64,000 nucleotides of DNA from Pseudomonadota bacterium (GTDB lineage: Bacteria > Pseudomonadota > Gammaproteobacteria > Burkholderiales > Rhodocyclaceae). Shown one piece after another: positions 1-15,680 of the stretch. The stretch is from contig JAFEDJ010000019.1 of the NCBI GenBank assembly GCA_018241685.1, forward strand, positions 1,265 through 65,264, read 5' to 3'. The notes under the pieces are model-generated. The model saw nothing but the letters and a program-made list of their open reading frames with translations, was not told the origin of the DNA and searched no databases. The first letter of the stretch is position 1, and every line of letters begins with the position of its first letter. The translations under genes were made by a program, and so were the position numbers.

Positions 1-1
1 T

Positions 2-166
2 AAGAAGCGAAACTTTGTCGCCGAACGCCTCACCGAGACGTTCCAGTTCTATCTGGACTCGCTCGGTGAACTTCTTTTGTTCGGGGGCATAGTCTTCAAA
101 AAAGTAATAGACAAACAACTTCGCTTCGGGCTCGACAGTCCCAAGGTACGTTTGTGTAACCCACAT
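2..166 (-). CDS. Hypothetical cassette protein, 5' part only (MWVTQTYLGTVEPEAKLFVYYFFEDY...), runs off the window
   Basis: ATG at 166 with GGAG 8-11 nt upstream; frame open to base 2; lies directly after the attC-like site at 191-259. Confidence 0.6.
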   Translation of the reverse strand, partial: MWVTQTYLGTVEPEAKLFVYYFFEDYAPEQKKFTERVQIELERLGEAFGDKVSLL

Positions 167-190
167 TATAACACTCCGATATGATATGAC

Positions 191-259
191 GCCCAATGTT
201 TGAATTCACCGGCCTTGCGCGGCTTTATGCGAAAGTTCCGGTGGAATGATGGTGCCTCA
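191..259 (-). mobile_element. Degenerate attC-like site 1
   Basis: Minus strand reads CCATC-ATTCCAC-CGG...TTCGCATAAAGCCGCGCAAG...CCGGT-GAATT-CAAAC-ATTGGGC. It is an imperfect palindrome with an L''/L' extra base; R' is ATTGGGC (GTTRRRY with G>A) and R'' is eroded. Confidence 0.65.
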
Positions 260-269
260 CTGGAAGGGG

Positions 270-1235
270 CTAGGAGTCAGCTTTGGGTGGCTTGGCTAGG
301 AAGTAGTCCAGACGGCCAATAGGCGAGTAAGGCTTCGCGAGCTTTATGACGGCCCACTTGCTGCCTGCATGAAACACACTCATGGCAGGAACTCGATACT
401 GCATCTCCCGAATCACCAAATGTTCTTTGGTGCCTAAGTCGCGAAGAATCCATTGTTCAAGATACTTGCGTGCTCCCACCTCGCCATCCAGCATGAAGTA
501 GATATTATCGAGGACGTCTTGTACGGTTGTGTCGGGGCCTATCTCGATGTGTTTCACACGTGGGGCTTCGGACTTCATATTGAGGTCTATGGCTACGTTG
601 TACCGGGCGTTGGATGCTGAGGGTAACGCGCCGTTGTCCGCCGTAGCGTTCATTACCTGCGCAAAGCGACGATCAAGATACTCTCGAAGCGTGTCCATCG
701 CCTGCGCGAGCGAAGGATTTGGAGGGGATGTAGACACAATCGCGTCATCCGACTTCTCCCGTGTGAGTGCTGCGACGGCTTCCTCTAGAACAGGGCGCGC
801 CATTCCCTCATCAAAAGGAATCTGATGCATGGCTAGGAGCTTCTCGGCGAAGCGCTTGAGTGAGTCGTAGTCTGCAAGTTGGAACGTCTGGTACATCGCG
901 AGAGGAAAGGGAACATCGGCAACGCTATCAATACCAACGCAGACAGGTATGACGGCACAGTTTATTTGTGCTGCTCCGAACCCTGCTTCGAACAACAGCC
1001 AAGGTCGGTTAACGCTCTGTGGAGTAAGCAGTACCACCAGCGCTCTGCTGTCAGCGATTTGACGGCGTATTTCGTCAAGCCAGACTTGACCAGGACGAAG
1101 CCCACCGCTGGGGCCATCATCAGAAGAGTGCCACACAGAAATTTGTCCGAGCGTGAGGCGCTGTACTGCTTGAGCAATGGCCTTTGCTCTCTCGCGATCA
1201 CGCGAGTCGTGACTGAGGAACAGTTTGTGAGGCAT
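270..1235 (-). CDS. TIR-domain protein (TIR_2-like) with a predicted C-terminal beta-grasp/ubiquitin-like domain
   Basis: N-terminal KLFLSH..RD, VW, ALVVLLTPQS..RPWLLFEAG with the catalytic Glu; C-terminal IEIGPDTTVQDVLDNI...WILRD...GSKWAVI resembles the ubiquitin strand-helix pattern. Confidence 0.8.
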   Translation of the reverse strand: MPHKLFLSHDSRDRERAKAIAQAVQRLTLGQISVWHSSDDGPSGGLRPGQVWLDEIRRQIADSRALVVLLTPQSVNRPWLLFEAGFGAAQINCAVIPVCVGIDSVADVPFPLAMYQTFQLADYDSLKRFAEKLLAMHQIPFDEGMARPVLEEAVAALTREKSDDAIVSTSPPNPSLAQAMDTLREYLDRRFAQVMNATADNGALPSASNARYNVAIDLNMKSEAPRVKHIEIGPDTTVQDVLDNIYFMLDGEVGARKYLEQWILRDLGTKEHLVIREMQYRVPAMSVFHAGSKWAVIKLAKPYSPIGRLDYFLAKPPKADS

Positions 1236-1310
1236 CGGTGGTCCAGTATAGAAAGTTCAGTATTTTCAGCTACTGCTTGTGCTGAAGTGCTACATCGATA
1301 TCCGGAAGGT

Positions 1311-1400
1311 GCATAGCGTTTTTGCATGTCCGAATTTCAAGTAATGCAGACAGCGTCGAGTCGGCCGGTTTTTTACTGGATGCAGCGGATGATCGGTCGG
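1311..1400 (-). mobile_element. Possible degenerate long attC-like site 2
   Basis: Minus strand ...ATCCG..CCAGTAA...TTACTTG..TCGGAC...CAAAAAC-GCTATGC; inverted arms AGTAA/TTACT and TCCG/CGGA; R' GCTATGC (GTTRRRY with T>C); lies between two cassette genes. Confidence 0.4.
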
Positions 1401-1577
1401 AGTCCGGGATTTGACCGAGAAACAGTAGAACATCAAGGACTGAGGATCGACTTCGCCGTGCATCGTTGCTGTGCCTGTAGTTCGGGGGATAAAGCTAGGA
1501 GAGGTGAATGGCCTGTTCGTTCACTGGGTACTGTATCAGTCGAGAGATCAATTACATTGTTGTATATAAGCCACGCT

Positions 1578-2135
1578 TCATATGGAATGACTTTCTGGAT
1601 ACCGGCTGTACAAGCGATTCTGCAAACGTGCTAGTTCCTTCATTGTTTTCATGTACTCCCGTTCGAGCTTCTTTGGCAGGGATATATAGCCGTGTTGGTC
1701 GGCCAGGTTGCCCGTGTTCAAGATTTCAAATCTTCTCTTGGCCAAGTAGAGGAAGCGGGTGACGTCGTGATCTTTGACGAGAGGCTGTCGGAGATTATCA
1801 ACCTGCCTTCCGATGTATTTTCTGTTTGGGTCAGGAAGGAAGGTGATGACATCAAACCGGCGCTCCCGAGAAGAAATGTCAATGTACTCGCCAGTTGGAC
1901 TTAACCAGACGGCATGAAACTCAGCCTCGATGAATACACCCGGACGCTCCCAGATGGCCCAGCCAATCACCTGTTCGCCACCAAAGGACGAGACGTGCCC
2001 TGGAAGGATAGAGAAGCACTCGTTCTCTGGTTGGTTTGGGGGTGGTTGGCAGACGACGGTCGCAGGTACTTGCTCGGGTACGATGCCACAACAAAACTCT
2101 CTGACATGCAGAGCATTAGCAGGGGCAGCACGCAT
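1578..2135 (-). CDS. Hypothetical protein with a transglutaminase/papain-like Cys-His-Asp motif set
   Basis: NECF (C40), GWAIW, AEFHAVW (H74), GEYIDI (D86); start moved to ATG 2135 because the track's start lies inside the attC-like site. Confidence 0.6.
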   Translation of the reverse strand: MRAAPANALHVREFCCGIVPEQVPATVVCQPPPNQPENECFSILPGHVSSFGGEQVIGWAIWERPGVFIEAEFHAVWLSPTGEYIDISSRERRFDVITFLPDPNRKYIGRQVDNLRQPLVKDHDVTRFLYLAKRRFEILNTGNLADQHGYISLPKKLEREYMKTMKELARLQNRLYSRYPESHSI

Positions 2136-2146
2136 AGGGAAATGAC

Positions 2147-2215
2147 CTCTATCATTTGACATGAGCGGCATGGTCGGGCTTGCCGGGACATATCCGCTCG
2201 ATGGAAGGTGGCGTC
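2147..2215 (-). mobile_element. Degenerate attC-like site 3
   Basis: Minus strand CCTTC-CATCGAG-CGGATATGTCCCGGCAAGCCCGACCATGCCG-CTCATG-TCAAAT-GATAGAG. It is a classic attC hairpin with the extra base in L''; R' is GATAGAG; it abuts the kwaB stop codon. Confidence 0.7.
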
Positions 2216-3128
2216 ACACTTGGGTTGCGTCTGGTACGTCGTAGATGAAGTCAGTGACTTCGCTTAGCAGTCGATGGTCAAGCAGTACTTGCATGATTGC
2301 TTTTGTCGTCTGGTCGCAAGGGACGAGTTGCCCTGTTTGTGGATCAAAGTTCAGCCCCCAGTTTCGTCGTGTGTTGACAGTTTGAACCGCATTGAGGAAG
2401 CCGGGGCGCCTAAAAAGCGCCCGCTCCTCAATTCGAGCCATGCGCCTTAGTTGAATCGAGTTCGTTCCAACGTGATCAATTAGAGGCTGCATGTTGGTAA
2501 ACAAGTTTGCAAAGTTCTGGTCTTGCTGAAGTCCAACGAAGGCCTGGGCATAAGAAGCCCGGTGCTCCATCGCCGACTCGAAGGCGCGTTTGCTCGCGAT
2601 GAAAAGGCCTTGCTGGTGTGCGTAAAAATCAAAGGTCTTCTCGATCGCAAAGGCGTTATCCTCAGCTGCAGACAACTCGCCATTTCGAAAAACGATGTTG
2701 ATATGTGTCTTCAGATATGAGGTCTTCCAGTTGCTCGCAGTCTTCTTGACGGCGTAGACGACTTGGCCATTGCAAACGAACTTAACAAGGTAGCCGCCCG
2801 CGTTCTTGAGATCCTTGATCGATTGGACTCGGCAGTCAGGCTCTGGGCGGTCGACTCGTGCCTTGAGGTACTCAAAGTCGCTGCCCGCTAATTGGGTGGT
2901 TAGACAGCTGTTTTCATTGTTTTGAGCGAGGTATGAGTAGGCTGCATACTCCGTAATTCGATTCACTTCGCTTCGCACTACACCAAGAAGCAATGCGTTC
3001 AGTGCTTCGTCAGTTTGAACGTAGTGCGCGGAAAATTTATATGCAGTAGAGCTTCGTTTGTAGACCCAAAGATGGATATGACTATTTTCAAAGTCGAATG
3101 CTCTAAGTGAAGCAAATGTTTGCTGCAT
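2214..3128 (-). CDS. kwaB: Kiwa anti-phage protein KwaB (DUF4868-like)
   Basis: 304 aa soluble protein with LW.YK N-terminus, FAIEKTFDF, FE..M..R and LRRMARI motifs; its ATG directly follows the TAG of the kwaA-like gene. Confidence 0.8.
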   Translation of the reverse strand: MQQTFASLRAFDFENSHIHLWVYKRSSTAYKFSAHYVQTDEALNALLLGVVRSEVNRITEYAAYSYLAQNNENSCLTTQLAGSDFEYLKARVDRPEPDCRVQSIKDLKNAGGYLVKFVCNGQVVYAVKKTASNWKTSYLKTHINIVFRNGELSAAEDNAFAIEKTFDFYAHQQGLFIASKRAFESAMEHRASYAQAFVGLQQDQNFANLFTNMQPLIDHVGTNSIQLRRMARIEERALFRRPGFLNAVQTVNTRRNWGLNFDPQTGQLVPCDQTTKAIMQVLLDHRLLSEVTDFIYDVPDATQV

Positions 3129-3713
3129 CTACTTGTCCCTGAGTATGTAGAAGTCTTGGACGGTCTGCCCCATCTGCTCACCGATCTCAAGGTTGCCGTA
3201 CTTAAGAACGCGAACATCCTTTTCTATGCCATTGATAACAATCGTTGCTTCGTACAGTTTCCACCCGAATATCAGAAGGAGCGGATTCATGAGGATTTGT
3301 CCCGACTTCAGTGTTATGGCAAACATCCAGAGTAGAAAGACTCCGAATCCTATGAGTTTCTGTGGATCACCGTAGGCTATTCCCATGAACGAAACAACGT
3401 ATGGGAAGGTATAGTTAATGATCTCGTTTGGTGTCGCCTTCATCCGCTTTACGTCTATCAAGAACGGACATCTAATTCTCAGAAGGGAACTCTTCGCGAG
3501 AAGCGTCGCCGCCGCAGTGACCGCTAGAAATGAGATGGATAAGACCGGGTTATCAAACGGTACGAACAGACATTCACTAGCTTTGAGGCTTGTGGTTGTA
3601 CAAAAAGGACGTGCCCACCACTGTGCCGATATGTCCTGCATCGCAAGAATGATCGCGAGTGGAAAGTAGGAGCCTAAGAAGATTAGGAGCCCTGGTATCA
3701 GGTGAAATTGCAT
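3129..3713 (-). CDS. kwaA: Kiwa anti-phage membrane protein KwaA
   Basis: About 4 TM segments; SYFPL, NYTFPYVVSF and NPLLLIFGWKLYE motifs; coupled to kwaB. Confidence 0.8.
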   Translation of the reverse strand: MQFHLIPGLLIFLGSYFPLAIILAMQDISAQWWARPFCTTTSLKASECLFVPFDNPVLSISFLAVTAAATLLAKSSLLRIRCPFLIDVKRMKATPNEIINYTFPYVVSFMGIAYGDPQKLIGFGVFLLWMFAITLKSGQILMNPLLLIFGWKLYEATIVINGIEKDVRVLKYGNLEIGEQMGQTVQDFYILRDK

Positions 3714-3758
3714 TGCAGGATGTTAATATTCAAGCGTGGTTCAGTGGTTGTTTGTGAT

Positions 3759-3826
3759 GTCCAACGTCTGAGTTTACTGGTCTGCGCGGTTTGTTGCGCA
3801 GGTCCGGTGGCGTGATGAGGTGGGGA
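3759..3826 (-). mobile_element. attC-like site 4 (intact GTT core)
   Basis: Minus strand CCCCAC-CTCATC-ACGCCAC-CGGACCTGCGCAACAAACCGCGCAGACCAGT-AAACT-CAGAC-GTTGGAC; same repeat family as site 1; R' is a perfect GTTRRRY. Confidence 0.7.
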
Positions 3827-3858
3827 TCGGTACGGAAAATTATTAGCCGTATACTTAG

Positions 3859-4341
3859 CTATTCATCAAAGCCATGAATAATTGACTTGGCAATACAGGT
3901 GCAATCGATGGCAACTCCTGGGAGTAGATAACCTGCTTCCGTAAGCAGCCCAAGGTTTGATTCGAATCGCTGACCAGAAAATCGGGCATGCGACGCATTG
4001 GGGTTGTTCTTCCTTAAACCGCAGGTGGTTGCTGTCCAAATGCATTTGGAAATGCCAAGGTCTTGTTTTCGTACTTGTTCTTTTCGCGCGGCGGCGATAT
4101 TGACGAAGTATCTGGATACAGCTGCGGCCTGACTCTTCTCCAGCTTGTAGCGTGCCGTAACTTCCTTTGCGAGCGAATGTAGATCTCGACCACATTCATA
4201 CACCAAAATACCAAATTCGCTTTTTTCGTCAAATTGAAGAAGAGAAAAATAATCCTTGGCTATCTGCACAGATTGCTCCGGCGAAACCTTGAGTCTCTCT
4301 TCAAAGTCTTTGGCAGTGTATGAAGGGTATCCATTTGGCAT
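3859..4341 (-). CDS. Hypothetical protein with a MuF/SPP1-gp7-like (phage minor head protein) C-terminal motif
   Basis: CIW.......H..FSGQRF...G......LPG..IDCTC...II matches the MuF pattern Y.W...H...G..F...PG..INCRC. Confidence 0.55.
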   Translation of the reverse strand: MPNGYPSYTAKDFEERLKVSPEQSVQIAKDYFSLLQFDEKSEFGILVYECGRDLHSLAKEVTARYKLEKSQAAAVSRYFVNIAAARKEQVRKQDLGISKCIWTATTCGLRKNNPNASHARFSGQRFESNLGLLTEAGYLLPGVAIDCTCIAKSIIHGFDE

Positions 4342-4664
4342 TCACAGTGCCTTTGCTTTTCGGAAGAATTTTAAGAACACGCGAACTCCAATATTTCAAG
4401 CCGACCGGGGGCTATCTCCAACGTAAACCTAATTGTCGCCTTCGTCATTCCACATATGTGGAGCTGGATTGATCCGTGGGGCGTTGCTGGCGCTCCGTCT
4501 TCATAAAGGCGTCAGTAACAAGGACTACAACCCGTCATCATCCGCCCGATTCTCACGTCTGCCGATTCTCAGCAGAATGGCATTTATCCTGTCAGTTTCA
4601 CTATGCACTGCGTCACTCGCGTGCTTCTCCACGGACTGCTTTGCTGCCCCATCAATCGTTCTAC

Positions 4665-4694
4665 TTGACGGTCGTCCAGCACTGGTTCGATACT
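4665..4694 (+). promoter_or_regulatory. Putative sigma70 promoter of the c4 operon
   Basis: TTGACG-N18-GATACT just upstream of the a1/b1 target region. Confidence 0.4.
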
Positions 4695-4757
4695 CCACCG
4701 CGTCACCTAAACAATGGTGATCGGGTGTAGGAACCCGGATTGCAAAGGCCGATGAAG

Positions 4758-4780
4758 GCCGCGTTTTGACGCGGCTTTTT
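4758..4780 (+). terminator. Rho-independent terminator between the a1/b1 sites and the c4 RNA
   Basis: GCCGCGT-TTTG-ACGCGGC followed by TTTTT. Confidence 0.7.
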
Positions 4781-4808
4781 CTTGTCGGAGTACGGTTGCG
4801 CCCTTTCA

Positions 4809-4888
4809 ATGGCGGGCCGTGCGGGGCAGCCGTGAGGCTGGCCGGTTCCTTTGCCCGGTATTCCTACCCCCGCACGGTTCCGCCGCCC
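4809..4888 (+). ncRNA. c4 antisense RNA (P1/P7 C4, P4 CI-like)
   Basis: Closing stem GGCGGGCCGTGCGGGG/CCCCGCACGGTTCCGCC; CAGCC-GTGA-GGCTG GNRA hairpin; exposed CCTTTGC (4848-4854) and TTCCTAC (4861-4867) are complementary to GTAGGAA/GCAAAGG upstream (4727, 4742) and downstream (4891, 4922). Confidence 0.8.
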
Positions 4889-4939
4889 CCGTAGGAAGGG
4901 GTGGCGGAGATGCAAATCGCAGCAAAGGAGCAACACCTC

Positions 4940-5050
4940 ATGACCATTCACGCCGAAGGGCGCGCAGACGTGCGCGTGCCGATTGCATCTGTTTCTTTCG
5001 CTTCACATTCAGCTCATTCGTCGCACGTGACGAGGAGGGCCAGGGCATGA
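4940..5050 (+). CDS. 36-aa peptide in the icd-like position after c4
   Basis: AAGGAG RBS overlapped by a c4 target; MTIHAEGRADVRVPIASVSF...; its stop overlaps the next ATG (ATGA). Confidence 0.5.
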   Translation: MTIHAEGRADVRVPIASVSFASHSAHSSHVTRRARA

Positions 5051-5334
5051 GCACGCCGATGCGCTTTCCCGCCCCCGCGAGCCCGATTTATGTTCTTGCC
5101 AGCGCGGCTGACGCGCTCGCCCTCACCGATCAACTCACCGCACGACAGGCTCAACTACAAGCGCTCCTTGCGATGACCCATGGCAACGCGGGGGATGTCT
5201 TCCGGCGCATGGATGTAGATTGCCAGGAGAACTACCTGTGGGCCTGCGCGATGATTGCGGGGGAGTTGCGGGAACTGATGGAAGCGATTCAGACTAGGTG
5301 GCGTGAAGAGAGGGCAGTGCACATCAAGGAGTGA
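5047..5334 (+). CDS. 95-aa helical hypothetical protein (QLQALL...QENYLWAC), c4-controlled
   Basis: ATGA coupling to the upstream peptide and GAGGAG upstream; corresponds to the 3' part of track ORF 4819..5334. Confidence 0.6.
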   Translation: MSTPMRFPAPASPIYVLASAADALALTDQLTARQAQLQALLAMTHGNAGDVFRRMDVDCQENYLWACAMIAGELRELMEAIQTRWREERAVHIKE

Positions 5335-5342
5335 TGGCGGGA

Positions 5343-5757
5343 ATGTTCATGTTGCCGCCCCCTTGATCATCGAGCGCTCGGCAACTTCTTGATAGCAGCC
5401 GGCAACATGCTTCGTTCACCCGGCAGGCAAGCATGTTGCCGGGTGAACATTCGATGTTGGTGCTGCAGCATTGAATACGCGCTTCAGCGCATTGAGTGCT
5501 CAGGTATCAATATTGAACATTCAATACGCTGATGGTTTATGTTCGGCCGTGAACATTGAATGTTAAGACCGCCGTATAGCATGTAGACGTCGCAATGATT
5601 GATGTTGCGACGTCAACTTTTTTCGTGGACAGCGACGCATGACATATGGAGCCGCTTACATCGAAAGCGCGGCCGTCAACATCGATGGAGGCGCCGGCAA
5701 CATTCGATGTTGCGCCCGCAACGATTCAGCCGCGGGTTTCATCGTTGATCAATGTTG
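5343..5757. repeat. Non-coding array of AACAT/ATGTT half-sites and nested inverted repeats
   Basis: 15 AACAT/ATGTT copies counted; GCAACAT-TCG-ATGTTGC at 5697-5713; 14-bp inverted repeat 5399-5412/5429-5442; 10-bp inverted repeat GACGTCGCAA/TTGCGACGTC at 5586-5614. Confidence 0.8.
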
Positions 5758-5819
5758 ATGGAATATACATCCCTTGTCATCATGCGTGCTCTGATTGAGT
5801 GGGCTCGAGGGAGAAGTCG

Positions 5820-8800
5820 ATGTTGCGTCATCTATCGCGTCGCGGTTTCGGGCTGGTGCCCTTGCTGCTGGTGCTTGCCGCGCTCGCTGCGGCGGGTGTG
5901 TTTGTCGCCAAGACGCAGCAATCCGATGAGGCGGAGTCTGTGGACGGGCCGTTCCAGATTGCGGATTTCGCCAATCGTGACTTCGAGGGCTCGCCGGCGC
6001 TGGCGCTGAGCTTCACGCATCCGATGGATGCGCGGCGGGATTACGACGGGGCGATCCAGGTGTTCGAGATGCCGCCCCGCACGGGTGAGGCCAAGCCGCA
6101 CACTCAAGACGACGAGGACGCCGACAATCAGGGCGAGGGCACGCCCGGCAGCGGCAATCCGCAGGTCAGTACGGCCCCGGCGGATGTGGCGATCGACGGC
6201 GGCAAGCTGGTGAAGGGCGCCTGGGTGGTGGGGGACAACCCGCGCATCCTGTATTTCCCGCACATCAAGCCGCAAACCCGTTACGTGGTGCGCGTGGCGG
6301 CGGGGCTGCCGTCGAAGGCCGGCCAGACGTTGGCGGAAGCCAGCAGTTATTCGGTGGTCACCGCCGTCGTCTCGCCGGCCTATTACTTCGCCAGCCGTGG
6401 CATGGTGCTGCCGGCCAAGCAGAACGGCGGGCTGCCGGTGGTCACGGTCAACGTGCCGGAGGTGGATGTCCAGTTCCTTCGCGTCAAGCCGGACCAGTTG
6501 CCACGCTTCCTCGACAAGGTGATCAGCGGGCCGCGTCCGCAGCGGGGCAAGCGCCAGCAGAATAACGACGGCTACGATTACGATGAAGAGTACGACGGCG
6601 ACGAGGACTGGCGCGCGACCGATCTCAAGGGGGCTATCGACAACTGGTCGCTCGACAATTTGCACAGCCTGACGGAGAGCGTGTTCACCGGCCGCTTCCT
6701 GACCGAGCAGAAGCCCAACAAGCGCAACGTCACTTTCCTTCCGGTCGAGGACATCAAGGAGCTTCGCGAGCCCGGCATCTACATCGCGGTGATGAGCCAG
6801 CCGAACCGTTTCCGCTACGACTATCAGGTCACTTATTTCTATGTCAGCGATCTCGGCTTGAGTACCCGGCTGTTCGCCAAGGGGGCCGATGCCTACGTCA
6901 GCTCGCTGACCACCGGCAAGGCGATGGCGGGGGTCGAGGTGGCCTGGATGGATGAGAACGCCAAGGTCCTGGCGCGCGCCGAGACCGACAGCAACGGACG
7001 GGCCCCCTTTGCGGAGCGGCCGGCTGCCGCCAAGCTCATTCTGGCGCGTAACGGCCAGCAGATCTCGTTGATTGCACTGAAGGAGCCGGCGCTGGATCTT
7101 TCGGAATACGACATCGCGGGCCTGCCCGGTCGGCCTGTGCGCTTGTTTGCGTACTCCGGTCGCAACCTGTATCGACCGGGCGAGAGCTTCGATCTGTCCG
7201 TATTGGCGCGGGATGCGGACGGCCGCGCCGTACCGCCACAGCCGATCCAGGCCATCCTCAGGCGGCCGGACGGCAAGAGCCAGTTCACTGCCACCTGGCA
7301 ACCGGACGGCAAGCTGGGGGGCTATTACCAGAACCGCATCGCGCTGCCGGTGGATGCGCCGACAGGCTCATGGACGCTGGAGCTGCGTGCCGACCCGGCC
7401 GACAAGCTGGCCACCACCAGCTTCCGTTTCGGCGTCGAGGAGTTTTTGCCGGAGCGCATGAAGCTCGATCTGGCCAGCAAGCAGGCCACGGTGTCGCCCA
7501 ATGACACGCTGACCATCGCCGTCAAGGGTGCTTATCTCTACGGCGCGCCGGCGGCTGGCAACCAGTTGCTCGGGGTTGCCGTCTTCGAGCGCCAGAAGAA
7601 TCCGCTGGCTCAGAAGCTGCCCGGTTTCGAGTTTGGCGACACCAATGAGGAGAGCCAGCGCCAGCGCGTGGAACTGGACCAGAGCCAGCTCGACGAGAAC
7701 GGTGAGCTGGCGCTCGACGTGGATCTCGCGCCGGCCAAGGACAAGCGGTCGCCCTACACCGTGCGGACCACGCTGAGCCTGCTGGAGAGCGGCGGCCGGC
7801 CGGTGGTGCGCAATTTCGAGCGGGTGATCTGGCCGGCGCCGGTGTTGGTGGGTGTCCGCCCGCTGTTCACCGGCGACTACGCCCGCGAAGGCAGCATCGC
7901 GCAGTTCGAGGTGGTGCGCGCCAACGCCGAGGGCAAGTTGAGCGCAGGCAGCGGGCTGCCGGTGCGCCTGTTCCGCGAGAACCGCGATTACTACTGGCGC
8001 TTCGACGACCAGCGCGGCTGGCATTCGGGTTTCACGGAGACCGACGAACTGGTGAACACCGCGAGCGTCAGCATTCCCGATGGCGGACGCGGCAAGCTCG
8101 GTGTGCCGGTCAAATACGGGCGTTACCGCCTGGAGATCACCGATCCGGCCACGCAGCAGACGACGAAATACCGCTTCTACGCCGGCTGGAGCGCCCGTGG
8201 CGACGAAACCCAGGGCGTCCGTCCCGATCGTGTCGCACTGAAGTTCGACAAGCCGGCCTACCAGGATGGCGAGACCGCCAAGCTGAGCATCACGCCGCCG
8301 CACGCCGGTGAGGCGCTGATCACCGTCGAGGCGGACAAGACCCTGTGGGTCAGGCGCATCCCGGTGGCCCTTGATGGCACGACGGTCGAGATTCCGGTGG
8401 ACAAGGCGTGGAAGCGCCACGACCTGTATGTGTCGGTCAGCGTGCTGCGGCCGGGCAGTGCTGGCGAAAAGGTCACCCCGGCGCGGGCCTTGGGCCTGGC
8501 GCACCTGCCGCTTGAACGGGGCGAGCGCAAGCTGGCGGTGAGTCTCGATGCGCCGAAGAAGATGCTGCCGGACACGCGCCTCAAGGTGAAGGTCAAGGCG
8601 CCCGGCGCTGCCGGCCAGCAGGCGGTGGTCACGCTGTCCGCCGTCGATGTGGGCATCCTCAACATCACGCGCTACACGACGCCCGACCCGCACGGCCACT
8701 TCTTCGGCAAGCTGCGTTACGGCGCCGACCAGTACGACGTGTACGGCCGTCTGATCGAGAAGATGGGCGGCCAGAAGGGCAAGCTCAAGTTCGGTGGCGA

Positions 8801-10964
8801 TGCCGCGCCGAAGGCGACCAAGAGCCTGCCCAAGAAGGTGCGCCTGGTGGATCTGTTCTCCGGGCCGGTGCTGCTCAACGCGCAGGGCGAAGCCGAGATC
8901 GCCCTCGACGTGCCTGATTTCAACGGCACGCTGCGCCTGATGGCGGTGGTCGCGGCACCCGAGAAGTTCGGCAACGCCGAGGCGGAGACGGTTGTTGCCG
9001 CGCCGCTGGTGGCCGAGCTGATGACGCCGCGCTTCCTGACGGTAGGTGACAACGCCACCATCGCCCTCGACCTGCACAACCTGTCCGGTGCGGCGCAGAA
9101 GCTCAAGGTGCGCATCGAGAATGCGGACGGCCTGAAGATCCAGAACGCCGAGCGCGAGCTGGACCTCAAGGATCAGCAGAAGCAGACGCTGCGCTTCCCG
9201 CTCGAAGCGGGCAACGCCTTCGGCCTGACCGATGTGCGGGTCCACGTCAGCAGCGTTGCCGGCCTCAAGCTGGAGCGCAGCTTCGGCCTGCAGGTCCAGG
9301 CGGCGACGCCGCAACAGCAGGTGCTCAAGCTGCTTGCCGTCGGGCCGGGCGAGACGGTGGAGGTGAAGGACGCGGAACTGGGCGGCTTCATCCGGAGCAC
9401 CGTGCAATCGCATCTGGTGCTCTCCAACAAGGCGCCGATCGACGTGCGCAGCGCCATCCAGGGGCTGCTGACCTATCCCTACGGCTGCGCAGAGCAGACG
9501 ACCAGCACGGCCTACCCGCATGTGCTGATCGACGAGGAGGGGGCCCGGCTGTTCGGGCTCAAGGCCTACACCCGCGCGCAGCGGGAAGACATGCTGGAGA
9601 AGGCCATCGCCCGGCTTGGCGCGATGCAGGCGCCGAACGGCGGCTTCAGCCTGTGGGGCAATGTGTCCGAGTACCAGTACTGGCTGTCGGCCTATGTCGG
9701 CAACTTCCTGCTCGATGCCCGCGAACAGGGCTTCCAGGTGCCGGAGGCGATGCAGAAGAAGACCCAGGAATTCCTGCTCAAGTATCTGCAGGAAGGCGTG
9801 GCCGGTCTGCCGACCGGCAAGCTGAGCTACAACGAGAACGGCTGGCAGGATTACCGCTTCGGCGGTTCCGGCCGTTTCGGCGTGCTTGCCTACGGCGCCT
9901 ATGTGCTGGCTCGTGAATCCAAGGCGCCGCTGTCCACGCTGCGCCAGATGTTCGAGGTCCGCAGCCAGGCGCACTCGGGGCTGGCCCTGGTGCAGCTCGG
10001 CCTGGCGCTCAAGCTGATGGGCGATGAAACCCGTGCCCAGACGGCGCTCGCCGAAGGTGTGAAAAAGAGCCGTGACAATGGCTACTGGTGGGGTGACTAC
10101 GGCAGCCCGCTGCGGGATGCGGCGCTGTCCTACGCGCTGCTCGACCGCCACAAGGTGAAGGTCGACGGCCGTGACAATCTGGTTGCCGTTGCTGCCGCCG
10201 AACTGGGCAAGAACCGTTACACCAGCACCCAGGAGAAGCTCGCGCTGTTCCTGCTCGGCCGCAACTTCACCAAGGCCGGCGAAGGCGAGGGCGGGTGGAC
10301 GGCGGAAGTGCTCGGCAAGGACACGCCGGAAGTCATCAACGGTGCTGGCACGCTGATCCGGCCGCTGTCGGCAACGGCCTTGCAGGGCGGCGTTCGTATC
10401 CGGAACACCTACAAGGACAAGCTCTACCTGCAACTCAGCCTGAGCGGCAATCCGGCGAAGATGCCGGCCAACCGCGACGACGCCATCGCATTGAGCCGCG
10501 ACCTGTTCGAAGCCGACGGCACGCCGCTGAAGAGCCGCACGCTGAAGGTTGGTGAATCGGTCATCGTGCGCATCAAGGTCAATCCGCACAGCTGGGTCAA
10601 TACCGGCATGGTGGTGGACCACATCCCGGCCGGCCTGGAGATCGAGAACCTCAATATCGTCCAGGGTGAAGGCATGGGCAGCACGACGATCGAGGGCATC
10701 AACCCGGCCGAGGCGATGCAGGACCCGCGCATCCAGCACGTCGAGTTCCGCGATGACCGCTTCGTGGTGGCCGCCCGGCTGCACGGCAAGCTCAGCCTGT
10801 TCTACCGCGCACGGGTCGTCACCCCCGGCAAGTTCGTCTTCCCACCGCTGTACGCCGAGGACATGTACCGCCCGGATGTCTATGGCCTTAGCACTGGCGA
10901 GGCGACCCTGACGGTGAGCGACGGCAAGGACAAGCCGGCTGCCGCAGCGCCGGCCAAACCGTAA
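5820..10964 (+). CDS. yfhM: Bacterial alpha-2-macroglobulin (YfhM/MG2 family)
   Basis: About 1715 aa; YRPGE MG2 motif, VEEFLPERM, thioester motif YPYGCAEQ, C-terminal MYRP; paired with pbpC. Confidence 0.95.
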   Translation: MLRHLSRRGFGLVPLLLVLAALAAAGVFVAKTQQSDEAESVDGPFQIADFANRDFEGSPALALSFTHPMDARRDYDGAIQVFEMPPRTGEAKPHTQDDEDADNQGEGTPGSGNPQVSTAPADVAIDGGKLVKGAWVVGDNPRILYFPHIKPQTRYVVRVAAGLPSKAGQTLAEASSYSVVTAVVSPAYYFASRGMVLPAKQNGGLPVVTVNVPEVDVQFLRVKPDQLPRFLDKVISGPRPQRGKRQQNNDGYDYDEEYDGDEDWRATDLKGAIDNWSLDNLHSLTESVFTGRFLTEQKPNKRNVTFLPVEDIKELREPGIYIAVMSQPNRFRYDYQVTYFYVSDLGLSTRLFAKGADAYVSSLTTGKAMAGVEVAWMDENAKVLARAETDSNGRAPFAERPAAAKLILARNGQQISLIALKEPALDLSEYDIAGLPGRPVRLFAYSGRNLYRPGESFDLSVLARDADGRAVPPQPIQAILRRPDGKSQFTATWQPDGKLGGYYQNRIALPVDAPTGSWTLELRADPADKLATTSFRFGVEEFLPERMKLDLASKQATVSPNDTLTIAVKGAYLYGAPAAGNQLLGVAVFERQKNPLAQKLPGFEFGDTNEESQRQRVELDQSQLDENGELALDVDLAPAKDKRSPYTVRTTLSLLESGGRPVVRNFERVIWPAPVLVGVRPLFTGDYAREGSIAQFEVVRANAEGKLSAGSGLPVRLFRENRDYYWRFDDQRGWHSGFTETDELVNTASVSIPDGGRGKLGVPVKYGRYRLEITDPATQQTTKYRFYAGWSARGDETQGVRPDRVALKFDKPAYQDGETAKLSITPPHAGEALITVEADKTLWVRRIPVALDGTTVEIPVDKAWKRHDLYVSVSVLRPGSAGEKVTPARALGLAHLPLERGERKLAVSLDAPKKMLPDTRLKVKVKAPGAAGQQAVVTLSAVDVGILNITRYTTPDPHGHFFGKLRYGADQYDVYGRLIEKMGGQKGKLKFGGDAAPKATKSLPKKVRLVDLFSGPVLLNAQGEAEIALDVPDFNGTLRLMAVVAAPEKFGNAEAETVVAAPLVAELMTPRFLTVGDNATIALDLHNLSGAAQKLKVRIENADGLKIQNAERELDLKDQQKQTLRFPLEAGNAFGLTDVRVHVSSVAGLKLERSFGLQVQAATPQQQVLKLLAVGPGETVEVKDAELGGFIRSTVQSHLVLSNKAPIDVRSAIQGLLTYPYGCAEQTTSTAYPHVLIDEEGARLFGLKAYTRAQREDMLEKAIARLGAMQAPNGGFSLWGNVSEYQYWLSAYVGNFLLDAREQGFQVPEAMQKKTQEFLLKYLQEGVAGLPTGKLSYNENGWQDYRFGGSGRFGVLAYGAYVLARESKAPLSTLRQMFEVRSQAHSGLALVQLGLALKLMGDETRAQTALAEGVKKSRDNGYWWGDYGSPLRDAALSYALLDRHKVKVDGRDNLVAVAAAELGKNRYTSTQEKLALFLLGRNFTKAGEGEGGWTAEVLGKDTPEVINGAGTLIRPLSATALQGGVRIRNTYKDKLYLQLSLSGNPAKMPANRDDAIALSRDLFEADGTPLKSRTLKVGESVIVRIKVNPHSWVNTGMVVDHIPAGLEIENLNIVQGEGMGSTTIEGINPAEAMQDPRIQHVEFRDDRFVVAARLHGKLSLFYRARVVTPGKFVFPPLYAEDMYRPDVYGLSTGEATLTVSDGKDKPAAAAPAKP

Positions 10965-10967
10965 GGC

Positions 10968-13313
10968 ATGACGCAACGCGCAGCATGGTGGATTGCCGGG
11001 CGCGGATGGCTGAGACGCCGTCCGCGCTGGCAGTGGGGTGTGTTGCTCGCGCTGCTCGTATTGGCTGGGCTGGACCATGCTTTTCCACCGCCGGTGCCCG
11101 GCCGTGATGCGCCGAACGCGCTGCTCATCGTCGCCCGCGACGGCACACCGCTGCGGGCCTTTCCGGATCGCGACCATGTGTGGCGCCATCCGGTGGCGCT
11201 GGCGGATGTATCGCCGCTCTATCTTGAGGCGCTGGAGCGCTACGAGGACCGCTGGTTCCGCTGGCATCCTGGCGTCAATCCGCTGGCCCTGACGCGGGCG
11301 GCGTGGCAGTGGCTGCGCCATGGGCGCATCGTCTCCGGCGGTTCGACGCTGACCATGCAGGTCGCCCGCATCATCGAGCCGACGCCGCGGACGCTGCTTG
11401 GCAAGGGCCGGCAGATCCTGCGCGCGCTGCAGCTCGAGCTGCACTATTCGAAGGACGAGATCCTCGCCCTCTACGTCAATTACGCGCCGATGGGCGGCGT
11501 GCTCGAAGGGGTCGAGGCGGCCAGCCGGGCTTATCTCGGCAAGCCGGCCAAACGCTTGAGCCACGCGGATGCGGCGCTGCTGACCGTGCTGCCGCAGATG
11601 CCGTCGCGCCTGCGGCCGGATCGTCAGCCGGCCCGGGCGCGGGTGGCGCGCGACAAGGTGGTGCACCGCATGGCCGGTGTGTGGCCGGACAGCGACATCC
11701 GCGATGCGCTGCAGGAGCCGATCATCGCCCAGACGGCGCGCGATCCGCTGCTTGCGCCCTTGCTCGCCGAGCGGCTGCGCAAGGACGCGCGTGGCCGGCA
11801 GCGTATCGACACGACCATCGACGCCCAGACCCAGCAGACCGTCGAGCTGCTGCTCACCAGCCGGCTCGCCGCCTTGCCGCCGCGGGTGTCGATGGCTGCG
11901 CTGGTGGTGGATAACGCAACGCTGGAGGTTCGCGCTTATGCGGGCTCGGCCGATTTCGGCGATACCGACCGCTTCGCCTTCGTGGACATGGTGCGTGCGT
12001 CGCGGTCGCCCGGCTCGACGCTCAAACCCTTCCTGTACGGGCTGGCGCTCGATGAAGGGCTGATCCATTCGGAGTCCCTGCTTGCCGATGTGCCGCAATC
12101 CTTCGGCGGCTATCAGCCGGGCAATTTCCAGCAGTCCTTCCACGGGGCGGTTAGCGTGTCCGAAGCCTTGAGCAAGTCCCTCAACGTGCCGGCCGTCGAG
12201 GTGCTCGACCGGCTGGAGCCGGGCCGTTTCGTCGCCGCCCTGCGGCGGGGTGGCCTGAAGCTGGATTTTCCCAAAGGCGAAGCGCCCAACCTGTCGGTGA
12301 TCCTCGGCGGTGCCGGTACGACGCTCGAGCAACTGGTCGGCGCCTACACGGCCTTTGCCCGCGAGGGGGTTTCCGGTAAGCCGCGTTACCGAACGGATGA
12401 ACCGCTGGTCGAACAGCGCATGCTGTCGCCCGGCGCGGCCTTCATCATCCGCGATGTGCTCGAATCCGGCGGACCGGTGGGCCGCGCGGTCGAGCAGGGG
12501 CCGGGCATCCGCCGCGGCATTGCGTGGAAGACCGGGACCAGCTTCGGCTTCCGCGATGCGTGGTCGATCGGCGTGTCGGACCGCTATACGGTCGGTGTGT
12601 GGATCGGCCGCCCGGACGGCACGCCGAACCCCGGTTTCTTCGGCGCCAACATCGCGGCGCCGCTGTTGGTCGATATCTTCTCGGCAGTGGATGGTCAGCC
12701 GGCTACGACCCGAACGCCGCCGCCTTCCGTGCATCAGGAAAAGATCTGCTGGCCGCTCGGCACGCGTTTTCAGCCGGAGGAAGAGGCCCTCTGCCATCGC
12801 CAGGCTATCGCCTGGGTGCTCAACGACACCGCGCCGCCAACCTTTCCCGACCGGCTGCGCAGCGGCGAGATGCGCTACGCCTACGAGGTCGACGCGGTCA
12901 GCGGCTTGCGCGTCACGGCGGCGTGCAGCACCCGCCCGCGCCGCCAGGTCGAGGCCGTGCATTGGCCGACCGCGCTGGACCCGTGGCTGAGCTCCGATCT
13001 GCGCGCCAAGGCGCAGCCGCCGGCGTGGGATGCCGGTTGTCAGAAGCAGGCCGAGCCGGACGCTGGTCTGAGCATCGTCGGTCTGAGCAGCGGTGAGGTG
13101 ATCAAGCGTCCGCGCCCTGATCAGGCGCCGGTGATCCGCCTCGAACTGCGCGGTCAGCGTGGGCAGGTTTATTGGCTGATCAACGGCCGGCTGGTCGCTC
13201 ACCGGCCCGCCACCCAGCCCTTGATTCAAACTCTGACCGAAACCGGCCGTGTCGACATCACCGCGATGGATGAGCAGGGCCGTTACGACCGGATCAGCGT
13301 CAGCGTGCGCTGA
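10968..13313 (+). CDS. pbpC: Penicillin-binding protein 1C
   Basis: EDRWF and GGSTLTMQVAR transglycosylase motifs, SxxK (GSTLKPF), SLN, KTGTS and a C-terminal PBP1C domain. Confidence 0.95.
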   Translation: MTQRAAWWIAGRGWLRRRPRWQWGVLLALLVLAGLDHAFPPPVPGRDAPNALLIVARDGTPLRAFPDRDHVWRHPVALADVSPLYLEALERYEDRWFRWHPGVNPLALTRAAWQWLRHGRIVSGGSTLTMQVARIIEPTPRTLLGKGRQILRALQLELHYSKDEILALYVNYAPMGGVLEGVEAASRAYLGKPAKRLSHADAALLTVLPQMPSRLRPDRQPARARVARDKVVHRMAGVWPDSDIRDALQEPIIAQTARDPLLAPLLAERLRKDARGRQRIDTTIDAQTQQTVELLLTSRLAALPPRVSMAALVVDNATLEVRAYAGSADFGDTDRFAFVDMVRASRSPGSTLKPFLYGLALDEGLIHSESLLADVPQSFGGYQPGNFQQSFHGAVSVSEALSKSLNVPAVEVLDRLEPGRFVAALRRGGLKLDFPKGEAPNLSVILGGAGTTLEQLVGAYTAFAREGVSGKPRYRTDEPLVEQRMLSPGAAFIIRDVLESGGPVGRAVEQGPGIRRGIAWKTGTSFGFRDAWSIGVSDRYTVGVWIGRPDGTPNPGFFGANIAAPLLVDIFSAVDGQPATTRTPPPSVHQEKICWPLGTRFQPEEEALCHRQAIAWVLNDTAPPTFPDRLRSGEMRYAYEVDAVSGLRVTAACSTRPRRQVEAVHWPTALDPWLSSDLRAKAQPPAWDAGCQKQAEPDAGLSIVGLSSGEVIKRPRPDQAPVIRLELRGQRGQVYWLINGRLVAHRPATQPLIQTLTETGRVDITAMDEQGRYDRISVSVR

Positions 13314-13331: not shown

Positions 13332-14429
13332 TCAGCCCTGTTGTTCAGTCGACAGCGGGTGGGTTTCCTGTTTGGGCGGGAAGATGGCCTTGTGCGCCAG
13401 ATGGTAGGCCAGCAGCAGCGGTGGCATGCGCAGCCAGTGGGCACGGATGTAGAGGCTGCGGCGTGCCAGCGGGGTGAAGCGATCGGCGGTGCTCGGGTGT
13501 TGCGGGCACAGTACGCGGGCGTAGATGCCGTCGAGCATGCGCTGGACGATGCCCGTGTCGGCGAGGCAGCGGCTGCGGGCCGCGATGCGCTCGGGGAGCG
13601 GCGTGCCGAGCAGGCGGTGGCAATAGCGCAGCGCAAGGCGCAGCGGGCCGGATAGCTGAAGTTGTGCGGCCCGTTCGAGGAGCCCGTCCCAGGCGGTGTC
13701 GTCACGGGCCAGGTGGCGCAGCAGCAGATCGAGGTCGGTGAGGTCGCGCAGCAGGTTGTCCGGTTCGCCTTCGTGGAACAGATGCGAGGCGCTGTGCAGG
13801 ATCAGGTCGGGCAGCGACAGGGTGTGCACGCCGGGCAGATCGGGTAGGGCGACGCTGGCTTCGATCAGCAGGCGGGCATCGGGTTTGAGGCGGGCGGTCG
13901 GCGGCAAGATGGTGTGGTGTACGTCGAGCGCGGAGCCGCGGAAGACATGGCGCATCGCAGGCAGTTCGTGCATCCAGCGGCGGTAGTAGCGCTGGTCGTA
14001 GTCGTCGGTGGCGGTGCTGGCCCAGCCCTTGAGCATCAGTGCGGATTCGGCATCGCCGAGGCGCTCCTTCGGCAGCAGGATGTCCACGTCGGAGAACAGC
14101 CGGCCCTGGGCGGCGGGCAGTCCGGCGGCGACGTAGGCGGCGCCCTTCAGCAGGATCACCGTGATGCCGGCCGGTTTGAGCGCCTCGCGGAGGAAGCAGG
14201 CTTCCCGCCGGATCGCGTGGCGCTGTTCGCTCGCCATCACTGCGCCGGACAGCAGGTGGTTGTGAGGCTGCTCCGGAATGTCGGCTTCGACGCCAGCGCT
14301 CTGCAGGCGCAGGAACAGCCGGCCGACCAGGTTGGCATGGCGCGCCTGGCGGACGAGCAGATCCCAGTCGGCGGTGCCGAGACGGCGGATCGATTCGGGG
14401 TGGCGGTAGGTCTCGATGAGGAGGTTCAT
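13332..14429 (-). CDS. Nucleotidyltransferase family protein (NTP_transf_5-like)
   Basis: LLKGAAY, GRLFSDVDILL and LDVH motifs; ATG at 14429 overlaps the kinase stop (ATGA). Confidence 0.85.
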   Translation of the reverse strand: MNLLIETYRHPESIRRLGTADWDLLVRQARHANLVGRLFLRLQSAGVEADIPEQPHNHLLSGAVMASEQRHAIRREACFLREALKPAGITVILLKGAAYVAAGLPAAQGRLFSDVDILLPKERLGDAESALMLKGWASTATDDYDQRYYRRWMHELPAMRHVFRGSALDVHHTILPPTARLKPDARLLIEASVALPDLPGVHTLSLPDLILHSASHLFHEGEPDNLLRDLTDLDLLLRHLARDDTAWDGLLERAAQLQLSGPLRLALRYCHRLLGTPLPERIAARSRCLADTGIVQRMLDGIYARVLCPQHPSTADRFTPLARRSLYIRAHWLRMPPLLLAYHLAHKAIFPPKQETHPLSTEQQG

Positions 14430-15346
14430 TCGGCCATGCCCTCCGCGGCGAGGCGGTCGAACACTGCAATGGCGTCGTCGAGGCGGCTGTATTCGAAGCT
14501 GTAGTTGCGCGTCCGCTCGATGATGTCTCCGACCGCCTTGAAGCCGCGTGCGCCGAGCACGTGGTAGTTCATGGCGTTGTCGGCGAGTTGCATGAAGGCG
14601 GTGCCGCTGCCCATCGGGGTCAGCGTCGCGTCGGCGCCGGCGCGGTAGCGCGGAAGCACCATCCAGGCGGGATCGGCCCATTCGCCGACGGCCTCGACGC
14701 TGGCCTGGGTCGGCGCCATCAGCGCGACGGTGCCCTTGGTGGTGTCGAGTATCGGCCGGGTGAGGAAGGCATCGGGCGCGTAGGTGCGAATGATGTCGAT
14801 GGACGCGTTCTTCAGGTTCACCGGCCGGGCGAGGCCCATGATCTGGCCGGTGTCGAGGCGGATCAGCGTGAGTTCATCGGATAACAGGCGCCAGCCCCGG
14901 TTGACCAGTGCGGCGCACAGGGTGCTCTTGCCCGACCCCGGCGGTGCCGGGAGGATGGCCGCGTGCTTGCCGCGTGCGACCGAGGCTGCGTGGATGACCA
15001 GGATGTGGTGGCAGTAGGCCGTCACGCACCAGTTCAGGCCCCATTCGAGCATCGGCAAGGCCTGGCCGCGCGGTAGCGGCGTGAACGGCTCGACGGCATC
15101 GACGATGAAACGTGCCTGCGGTGCAATCCATCGACGCAGGCCATGGCCGGGCTGGACACCGACATGGAAGTCGATGAAGGGCTTGTCGTCGATCAGCGGA
15201 TGATGGGCGTAGAGCCGGGCGAGTTCATCGGCGAGCTCGGGAATTCCGCTCTGCAGGCGGCAGTTGAACGGTCCGGTGGCCAGTCGGATACCGTCTCCAC
15301 CTAGCCGCGCGCGGAATTCAGCCAGGGAAAGATCACGAATTTTCAA
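14426..15346 (-). CDS. HprK-related kinase A
   Basis: IHAASV, Walker A PGSGKST, GWRLLSDEL and LARPVNLK motifs. Confidence 0.9.
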   Translation of the reverse strand: MKIRDLSLAEFRARLGGDGIRLATGPFNCRLQSGIPELADELARLYAHHPLIDDKPFIDFHVGVQPGHGLRRWIAPQARFIVDAVEPFTPLPRGQALPMLEWGLNWCVTAYCHHILVIHAASVARGKHAAILPAPPGSGKSTLCAALVNRGWRLLSDELTLIRLDTGQIMGLARPVNLKNASIDIIRTYAPDAFLTRPILDTTKGTVALMAPTQASVEAVGEWADPAWMVLPRYRAGADATLTPMGSGTAFMQLADNAMNYHVLGARGFKAVGDIIERTRNYSFEYSRLDDAIAVFDRLAAEGMAE

Positions 15347-15665
15347 GGGAATGGCTCGGAGCGGCCTGAATCAGGCGGGCGCCGATCAGCGCGTCGAGGG
15401 CCGCCACAACGAGTTGCCGGCAATCCTCCGGGGCTGCATCGGGCTCTTCCTGGCAGATGGCGTGGATCAATTCGTCTTCGGAGCGCTGCCGGCCGGGAAC
15501 CGACAGCTGATCAAGCACGAATCGGGTGACCGGGGCGAGCAGAAGGGTTGCACCGGCTTGTGGGTCGTAGCGGACCCACCCTTCATCTACGTCTTTCCAG
15601 AGTACATCCGCCAAGCCTTCGAACAGGGTCTCGCTGGCGGAGTACCGGATGCCGGCCGGGACCAA
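15333..15665 (-). CDS. HPr-rel-A system PqqD-family peptide chaperone (RRE-like)
   Basis: About 110 aa; W.D.DEG.V.YDP..G.T.LL followed by helical L..L...LI; sits immediately upstream of the kinase. Confidence 0.8.
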   Translation of the reverse strand: MVPAGIRYSASETLFEGLADVLWKDVDEGWVRYDPQAGATLLLAPVTRFVLDQLSVPGRQRSEDELIHAICQEEPDAAPEDCRQLVVAALDALIGARLIQAAPSHSLENS

Positions 15666-15680
15666 AAGTCAGCGTCGCTA

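Follow-up and report, generated by a model that had tools for sequence, protein, structure and literature searches.

A degenerate, clade-restricted array of 21-bp palindromic units abuts the alpha-2-macroglobulin promoter of a Rhodocyclaceae bacterium

Introduction

What kind of element leaves a dense cluster of short, mutually complementary words between a variable gene island and a conserved chromosomal operon? In a stretch of 64,000 nucleotides from a Rhodocyclaceae bacterium (contig JAFEDJ010000019.1; hereafter the window, to which coordinates refer unless a locus is named), positions 5343–5757 carry six AACAT and nine ATGTT pentamers. A reading made from the letters of this DNA alone (the sequence-only reading) had counted these 15 pentamers where about one would be expected by chance. 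The count holds: the window mean is 0.53 pentamers per 415 bp, and the richest other 415-bp stretch of the 64 kb has three. Here, we report that the field is a real, non-coding, degenerate and clade-restricted array of 21-bp units with a dyad core, which abuts the –10 region of an alpha-2-macroglobulin gene, and that the AACAT/ATGTT excess is the footprint of this repeated unit with its 13-bp dyad core. We then weigh what the array may be for, given that it forms the 3′ tail of a multicopy module encoding a C4 antisense RNA.

Results

A hidden 21-bp tandem array accounts for the pentamer excess

Once the field is laid out in rows of 21 nt, the pentamers align in columns; their centres fit lattices of 7 and 10.5 bp. 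Autocorrelation and tiling delimit an unstranded, degenerate tandem array (5335–5757) in which a 21-bp unit with the consensus GCCGGC-AACAT-TSR-ATGTT-GN recurs about 20 times. Self-identity of the field is 0.398 at a lag of 21, compared with 0.25–0.27 at lags 18–20 and 22–24, and returns to 0.36 at lags 42 and 63. The lag-21 value was unmatched in 500 dinucleotide-preserving shuffles at any lag from 1 to 63 (shuffle maximum, 0.346), and the autocorrelation z-scores at lags 21, 42, 63, 105 and 126 are 7.1, 5.2, 4.75, 4.05 and 4.1, respectively. Dynamic-programming tiling placed 21 consecutive units over 5314–5755 with a single 1-bp shift; its consensus, GCCGGCAACATTGAATGTTGA, has low information per position.

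Each unit joins a GC-rich hexamer to a 13-bp dyad, AACAT-N3-ATGTT, with a 5-3-5 bp layout. The two best-preserved units, GCCGTCAACATCGATGGAGGC and GCCGGCAACATTCGATGTTGC, are neighbours at 5672–5713 (unstranded; top unit scores of 14.4 and 19.1). The second of them holds the third of three full dyads (palindrome 3, 5699–5711), and the best unit, GCAACATTCGATGTTGC, is a 17-bp palindrome. The pairs that the sequence-only reading had singled out, at 5446–5458, 5552–5564 and 5699–5711, are all present, and AACAT-N3-ATGTT starts nowhere else in the 64-kb window. Likewise, the string SAACATYSRAT has six matches in 64 kb (0.36 expected), all within the field.

Tandem Repeats Finder (TRF; minimum score 30) reported nothing in the field, being blind to an array whose units are too diverged. 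Raw lag-21 identity had to be rejected as a window-wide detector, as it is confounded by codon periodicity in coding DNA; we replaced it with a score that contrasts lags 21 and 42 with the neighbouring multiples of three (lags 15, 18, 24, 27, 39 and 45). This contrast puts the field first in the 64-kb window (z = 5.5). The field is also set apart by composition—51.6% GC versus 63.5% for the window—and contains no AT-rich block; to its left, a low-GC island (45–50% GC) reaches to about 4700.

The field has the defining properties of a minisatellite, and of an old one: its units stand head to tail, their period is constant and strains differ by a unit-sized insertion (see below). It resembles minisatellites of the variable number tandem repeat (VNTR) type in its tandem unit of ~20 bp, its between-strain indels and its non-coding nature; unlike in typical VNTRs, the units are far more diverged and each is internally palindromic.

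The array ends at the core promoter of a conserved operon

Downstream of the field lies a gene for a bacterial alpha-2-macroglobulin of 1714 aa (5820–10964, + strand; Pfam bMG1–10, A2M and TED domains), followed by pbpC (10968–13313, + strand; Pfam Transgly/Transpeptidase/BiPBP_C). Orthologous arrays occur upstream of the macroglobulin gene in five loci of close relatives—L007, L008 (Zoogloea sp. LCSB751), L016, L009 and L071—where they hold 7–11 pentamers, and the 21-bp periodicity was present in all five tested. The array keeps its position in six Zoogloea-clade genomes; Azonexus, Dechloromonas, Undibacterium and every other sampled genus lack it upstream of the macroglobulin gene.

In these other genera, homology to Zoogloea starts only at the –10 region and continues downstream, so the array ends exactly at the core promoter. 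This core-promoter region of the macroglobulin operon (5752–5782, + strand) comprises two invariant blocks, 5752–5765 and 5769–5780, with the last ATGTT at its upstream edge; where other genera have the extended –10 sequence TGTCATAAT, the window has ATGTTGATGGAATAT (5752–5766). A sigma-70 consensus scan of 4700–6000 returned no match.

Such a position is what one would look for in an operator or upstream-activating array specific to the alpha-2-macroglobulin/pbpC operon: the array stands directly upstream of the conserved –10 region, has its best-preserved units about 110–150 nt upstream of the ATG and keeps its place across the six genomes. We nevertheless consider a dedicated operator unlikely, given that other genera have the same operon without the array, that parts of the array travel with C4-module copies away from the macroglobulin gene (see next section), that no linked regulator gene was found and that most units are unconstrained.

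The array is the tail of one C4-module sub-lineage

The DNA to the left of the array, together with the first array units, belongs to a multicopy module of roughly 1 kb (4455–5446, + strand), copies of which are 81–92% identical in L005, L006, L008, L016 and L071. It encodes a C4 antisense RNA (RF01695; 4805–4890, + strand; 69.9 bits against a gathering score of 45) and, downstream of it, a 95-aa, all-helical open reading frame (ORF; 5047–5334, + strand; 18 protein clusters). Module copies at another locus, beside a TsiV gene in L005 and L006, are homologous to the window up to 5445–5452, and their shared tail spans the first five array units together with the hairpins described below. Contigs of DNA run X6 branch at 5439–5456, and in that run the summed contig depth over 5332–5575 is about 2–3 times that of the macroglobulin gene.

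L071, a metagenome-assembled genome, has a further module copy, an intact one, 3 kb upstream, which is followed by the equivalents of 5335–5455 and 5527–5645. After this tail come four cargo genes and a truncated module, then the complete array and, last, the macroglobulin gene, an arrangement that suggests module replacement. Truncation of the module adjoining the macroglobulin gene has removed the C4 RNA as well as the ORF's 5′ half and has left a 140-aa fusion ORF (L071 4361–4783; protein P0016); the upstream module, which has four unknown cargo genes downstream, resembles the copy in the window. L009 has kept the array along with no more than the final ~30 nt of the 95-aa ORF, beside a histidine kinase gene, and is best read as a deletion derivative. 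This hybrid histidine kinase was discarded as a conserved neighbour: it sits beside the macroglobulin gene in no other fetched locus. More distant module copies are without the array, as are most module copies overall. From the comparison of these loci we conclude that the array is the 3′ tail of one sub-lineage of the C4 module and that it reached the macroglobulin promoter together with the module. The field is thus a decaying part of a horizontally moving element, in agreement with the sequence-only reading, which had placed it at an island/core boundary and spoken of a decayed element.

A boundary position, low GC and many short repeats would equally suit an attachment (att) site arm, used by a site-specific recombinase that moves the island, and in L071 cargo begins right after an array piece. 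We regard this as highly improbable, however. No integrase was found in ten module-bearing loci, L009 has the array without an island, no terminal inverted repeats connect the two module ends and the left end of the module has no repeat matching the array.

With regard to the ORF itself, the periodic array seems to start (~5314) inside its 3′ end, and its last ~13 codons (5290–5334) vary among module copies. Two further loci show a comparable period. In the SZAS-76 genome, a second array phased at ~21 bp and built on another palindrome, (A)CTCGCGAG, lies at L004 5059–5420, about 800 bp downstream of another C4-module copy. In an Azoarcus metagenome-assembled genome (L027 3998–4312), very strong 21-nt periodicity (identity 0.59) occurs at the start of the macroglobulin gene; it probably reflects a coding repeat of 7 aa within the N-terminal linker.

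The array drifts at about the neutral rate and retains its inverted repeats

We measured conservation across the five orthologues, with the 4-fold degenerate sites of the adjacent gene as reference. Invariant columns make up 53% of the field versus 68% of the 4-fold degenerate sites. Pentamer positions are not clearly better kept than other positions (60% versus 51% invariant), and conservation is independent of position within the 21-bp unit. Apart from the two core-promoter blocks, invariant blocks of at least 9 nt are found at 5438–5455 and 5674–5682, with a further one (5377–5385) in the weakly repeated first units. The sequence-only reading had staked its case on conservation of motif and spacing in homologues; the spacing register is indeed kept, whereas the individual motif copies are not and turn over at an approximately neutral rate.

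Length changes add to this turnover. An insertion of exactly 21 nt is present in L016 and L071, copy 1 of L071 has a ~70-nt deletion between two TGAACATTC repeats, and metatranscriptome contigs of strain variants are 123 and 110 nt shorter within the array. For the common ancestor of the window, L007 and L008, we inferred 12 pentamers. In the window lineage, four were gained (P ~0.001–0.002) and one was lost in 26 substitutions; two of the four gains have a secure direction of change.

The gains restore inverted repeats. Palindrome 1, AACATTCGATGTT (5446–5458, unstranded), marks the right end of the multicopy module; its left half, part of the block 5438–5455, is unchanged in five orthologues, and its right half, ATGTT, is specific to the window, where a C to G change at 5456 makes the palindrome perfect. 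The right half of palindrome 2, AACATTGAATGTT (5552–5564, unstranded), pairs with 5516–5525. Here, a compensatory pair of changes relative to L007 (5518 T to C and 5562 A to G) preserves the 10-bp inverted repeat 5516–5525/5555–5564, which reads AATATTCAAT/ATTGAATATT in L007. Changes at 5341 and 5345, in turn, jointly create GAATGTTCA, the exact complement of 5444–5452. The array thus drifts at about the neutral rate with its inverted-repeat character retained, a pattern explicable either by selection for hairpins or by quasi-palindrome template switching.

These comparisons also bear on coding potential. The field contains no ORF of at least 60 aa, as the sequence-only reading had stated (the longest is 47–50 aa). 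That reading had named a decayed repetitive coding sequence as a risk to its own interpretation, and a period of 21 nt does equal seven codons: remnants of a protein with 7-aa repeats could account for the weak lag-3 autocorrelation (z = 3.6) and for the frames of 94–220 aa that are open across the field on the – strand in L016 and L071. Yet variable columns are spread evenly over codon positions (43/41/43, p = 0.98), in contrast to the 17/8/5 distribution of substitutions at the 3′ end of the neighbouring 95-aa ORF; all three – strand frames are open together in L016 and L071, which points to an effect of composition; and the field has no Pfam match at E ≤ 1. With a DNA palindrome as the repeated unit, a coding origin is the least credible of the explanations that we considered.

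Hairpins and transcripts across the field

Stem conservation and compensatory changes identify two overlapping hairpins in the C4-module tail (5396–5449, + strand). The conserved stem, GTTCACCCGGCA/TGCCGGGTGAAC (5414–5425/5437–5448), is kept in seven of seven sequences, copies at the other locus included, and one-sided changes in it yield G·U pairs on the + strand. The alternative stem (5399–5412/5429–5442) is included in an inverted repeat of 17 nt (5396–5412/5429–5445, 94%) and shows two compensatory double changes in L016 and L071, where the extra unit merges both stems into one hairpin with 29-nt arms of 93% complementarity. The two folds are mutually exclusive, as had been proposed from the sequence, for both stems use bases 5437–5442. 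Further downstream, a terminator-like hairpin, GACGTCGCAA...TTGCGACGTC followed by TTTTTT (5586–5622, + strand), has a stem (5586–5614) that is retained in L007 and L009 and broken in L008, L016 and L071. Two substitutions specific to the window, at 5620 and 5621, created the T-run (5615–5622), where TTGCTT stands in the orthologues.

Folding energies of the five tested orthologues are far below those of shuffled sequences (z from –3.3 to –8.4), and the window field reaches z = –5.6 on the + strand. Together with the conserved hairpin pair 5396–5449 and the metatranscriptome contigs that in some cases span the field, this might be taken for the sign of a structured RNA, one of the options in the sequence-only reading; as a discrete species, it could be a small RNA, a riboswitch or an extended leader at the 5′ end of the macroglobulin mRNA. 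The – strand folds equally well, though (z = –5.2), as DNA palindromes should. Moreover, an Rfam scan of the field found no family (the best hit at a permissive E-value, E = 0.58, is noise), RNAalifold detected no net covariation beyond 5460 (term +0.93, unfavourable, for 5440–5650) and the field turns over fast. What survives of the structured-RNA idea is the hairpin pair, to which RNA-type conservation in the field is limited, and we judge a discrete RNA covering the field to be quite improbable, somewhat more so than a dedicated operator.

The evidence on transcription consists of assembled contigs, not reads. In the RNA runs, the C4 RNA has very high coverage, deeper than that of any other stretch. 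RNA contigs from the ORF and the module extend into the array, where they end at 5527–5555 and coverage fades by 5527–5575; it is zero over 5576–5636 in runs X4 and X19. Macroglobulin RNA contigs start at 5746 in X4 and, directly after adapter sequence, at 5700 in X22.

A proposed hairpin-rich 3′ end or a possible scaffold for a dimeric protein

The explanation that we favour, and to which we give about as much credence as doubt, is that the array mainly forms a hairpin-rich 3′ untranslated region, terminator and insulator of the C4 module and, in addition, a fragile junction. The array would have grown by slipped-strand duplication of the hairpin arms at the module's end. Its remodelling may now proceed through unit-sized and other indels and through quasi-palindrome (template-switch) corrections, which would keep inverted repeats abundant while the primary sequence drifts almost neutrally. 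On the + strand, the array would serve as a hairpin-rich 3′ untranslated region that could stabilise and terminate the C4-ORF transcript and may shield the alpha-2-macroglobulin promoter from read-through; its repeats would render it fragile and turn it into a junction for deletions and cargo exchange.

Several observations weigh against this explanation. The blocks 5438–5455 and 5674–5682 are better conserved than hairpins alone predict. The canonical terminator form, a stem plus a T-run, is restricted to the window lineage, and the covariation term beyond 5460 is unfavourable. Two sludge metatranscriptomes have contigs that are continuous across the field into the macroglobulin gene, so termination is at best partial. 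Template switching without selection can yield changes that look compensatory. Finally, a strict two-turn register of 21 bp and a dyad core typify protein-binding arrays, and hairpins need neither.

The last point leads to the strongest competing explanation, in which a dimeric DNA-binding protein would recognise the helically phased units as an iteron-, centromere- or operator-like site of the C4 module or of its parent element, perhaps only weakly functional or a relic. Dimers bound to the 13-bp dyads, two helical turns apart, would polymerise on a single face of the DNA. The exact 21-bp register over ~420 bp in the five tested orthologous arrays speaks for this, as do the 5-3-5 bp core, the 17-bp palindrome of the best unit and the fit of the pentamer centres to the 10.5-bp lattice (p = 0.005). 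Moreover, G[GT][GC]AACAT recurs in the same orientation at 5401, 5443, 5549, 5675 and 5696, among the best-kept parts of the array; pentamer sites have been gained in the window lineage; and the ~21-bp phased array near a module copy in L004 is a second case with its own palindrome.

On the other side, no candidate binder was found. The 95-aa protein was considered as the DNA-binding partner of the array and rejected: its AlphaFold2 model is a plain three-helix bundle without a match to a DNA-binding (helix-turn-helix or ribbon-helix-helix) fold. No Rep, ParA/B or ParR is encoded among the flanking genes scanned within ~5 kb. Pfam and PADLOC scans of the ORFs of at least ~160 aa flanking the field (1–13313) gave no parA, parB, parM or parR, the larger ORFs scanned over 13332–32015 include no partition genes, and no TTATCCACA-like DnaA box with up to one mismatch occurs in 3370–11905. 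Motif positions are no better conserved than the rest, divergence equals or exceeds that of synonymous sites, and orthologue counts of 7–11 pentamers against an ancestral 12 fit neutral decay. The absence of the array from most module copies and of any plasmid or phage similarity adds to the case. On balance, we think of a binding array, and of dimers polymerising along it, as possible but doubtful, well behind the hairpin-rich 3′ end and well ahead of an operon-specific operator.

Comparison with known systems reflects this ambiguity. The lambda origin has four dyad-symmetric iterons of ~19 bp, and P1, F, R6K and pSC101 have iterons of 19–22 bp. Like such plasmid and phage iteron arrays, the field consists of many tandem units of ~21 bp in two-turn phase—well over the three direct repeats of 17–22 bp in helical phase that characterise iterons—with a dyad per unit as in lambda. 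Unlike them, it comes with no initiator gene, DnaA boxes or AT-rich unwinding element, its units are only ~40% alike and drift neutrally, and it occupies a chromosomal setting beside a core gene. Among partition centromeres, F sopC comprises 12 repeats of 43 bp with inverted repeats, and the parC sites of pSK41 and R1 are likewise tandem-repeat centromeres. The field shares with them a cluster of arrayed dyads able to nucleate a protein filament; it differs in that no parA, parB, parR or ribbon-helix-helix gene is nearby and in that most module copies do without it. The iteron, operator, origin or centromere proposed by the sequence-only reading therefore stands with respect to anatomy, some 20 in-phase dyad units, and falls short in the missing initiator or partition gene, DnaA box and AT-rich unwinding element.

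Repetitive extragenic palindromes (REP) and bacterial interspersed mosaic elements (BIME), palindromic clusters found at gene 3′ ends, offer a different analogy. As with REP/BIME, the field is intergenic, transcribed from the upstream gene and rich in imperfect palindromes in both orientations, and it is a plausible mRNA 3′ stabiliser and partial terminator that is prone to rearrangement. Unlike them, its motif is confined to the field within the 64 kb rather than dispersed, it follows a strict 21-bp register, and no REP-associated transposase was seen among the genes scanned.

The C4 module and its cargo

The 95-aa ORF family (18 clusters) is confined to Zoogloea/Rhodocyclaceae, and the C4 RNA precedes the ORF in every scanned locus with an intact ORF copy. 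The protein has no Pfam match and no fold match (best Foldseek E-value, 1.3), no phage match by BLAST and no relative in viral contig scans. In BLAST searches against phages and plasmids, matches of the module to plasmids and megaplasmids are confined to its C4 RNA part (the one Ralstonia match that we inspected carried no annotation), and the field itself matches neither phage nor plasmid sequence. The P1/P7 immI region (c4 antisense RNA–icd–ant) resembles the DNA upstream of the field in its bona fide C4 RNA and the small ORF downstream of it; the module in the window differs from it in that the 95-aa ORF is unmatched in phage records and is followed by a repeat array, not by ant, kilA or repL. 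The Rfam c4-a1b1 target motif is present upstream of C4 in L001 (3754–3806 and 1269–1321) and L002 (6241–6293 and 3756–3808); the copy in the window is below the gathering score for this motif.

Short probes and the literature added no relatives. In a metagenome scan, the invariant 18-mer GCCGGGTGAACATTCGAT hit 14 loci, all single chance matches without homology to the field, and in viral contig scans the 14-mer AACATTCGATGTTG gave single chance matches only; both were discarded. Literature searches on the palindrome strings returned papers on glucocorticoid response elements only, and those on the C4 RNA contained nothing on downstream repeats.

In the Zoogloea clade, module copies occur several per genome, up to two within 3 kb, and are interleaved with unrelated cargo. 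We noted modules in the window and in L001–L006, L008, L016, L070 and L071, always with variable cargo adjoining; this cargo includes AAA_13/15/21 ATPases, YhcG-like nucleases and Kiwa as well as metabolic genes. The island in the window carries a TIR-domain gene (270–1235, – strand) and a complete Kiwa anti-phage system (2214–3713, – strand), with KwaB at 2214–3128 and KwaA at 3129–3713 (PADLOC E = 6.7e-123 and 2.1e-71, respectively). In its general appearance, the C4 module is reminiscent of an addiction module or a portable junction used by islands.

Discussion

Taken by itself, the array matters little: it is lineage-restricted and drifting, and the motif excess that drew attention to it can be explained without an origin, a centromere or a riboswitch. 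Its lesson for sequence analysis is that a 20- to 30-fold excess of a k-mer can be the relic of a tandem unit whose decay has put it beyond the reach of TRF.

A more far-reaching view is that the 21-bp dyad array is a functional cis site of a new cassette system for recombination, segregation or silencing, which we regard as a long shot. It would make C4/small-ORF modules with repeat tails portable junctions for Zoogloea-clade bacteria to stack and exchange cargo, Kiwa and other anti-phage systems included, an extension that is equally speculative. With similarly slim prospects, each module lineage might carry its own palindrome—AACATTCGATGTT here and CTCGCGAG in L004—to be read by a putative cognate protein. 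Should a specific binder of the array exist, the array would offer it phased dyads on a natural scaffold of unusual size.

For the Zoogloea clade, the array has two more immediate meanings. It supplies all sequence upstream of the –10 region of a conserved periplasmic defence operon, alpha-2-macroglobulin/pbpC, and may thereby have rewired the control of this operon in the clade. It also marks the exact 3′ end of the C4 module and so provides a handle for finding islands of variable and defence genes in Zoogloea. A more interesting lead than the array is the C4 module itself, with its link to variable defence cargo.

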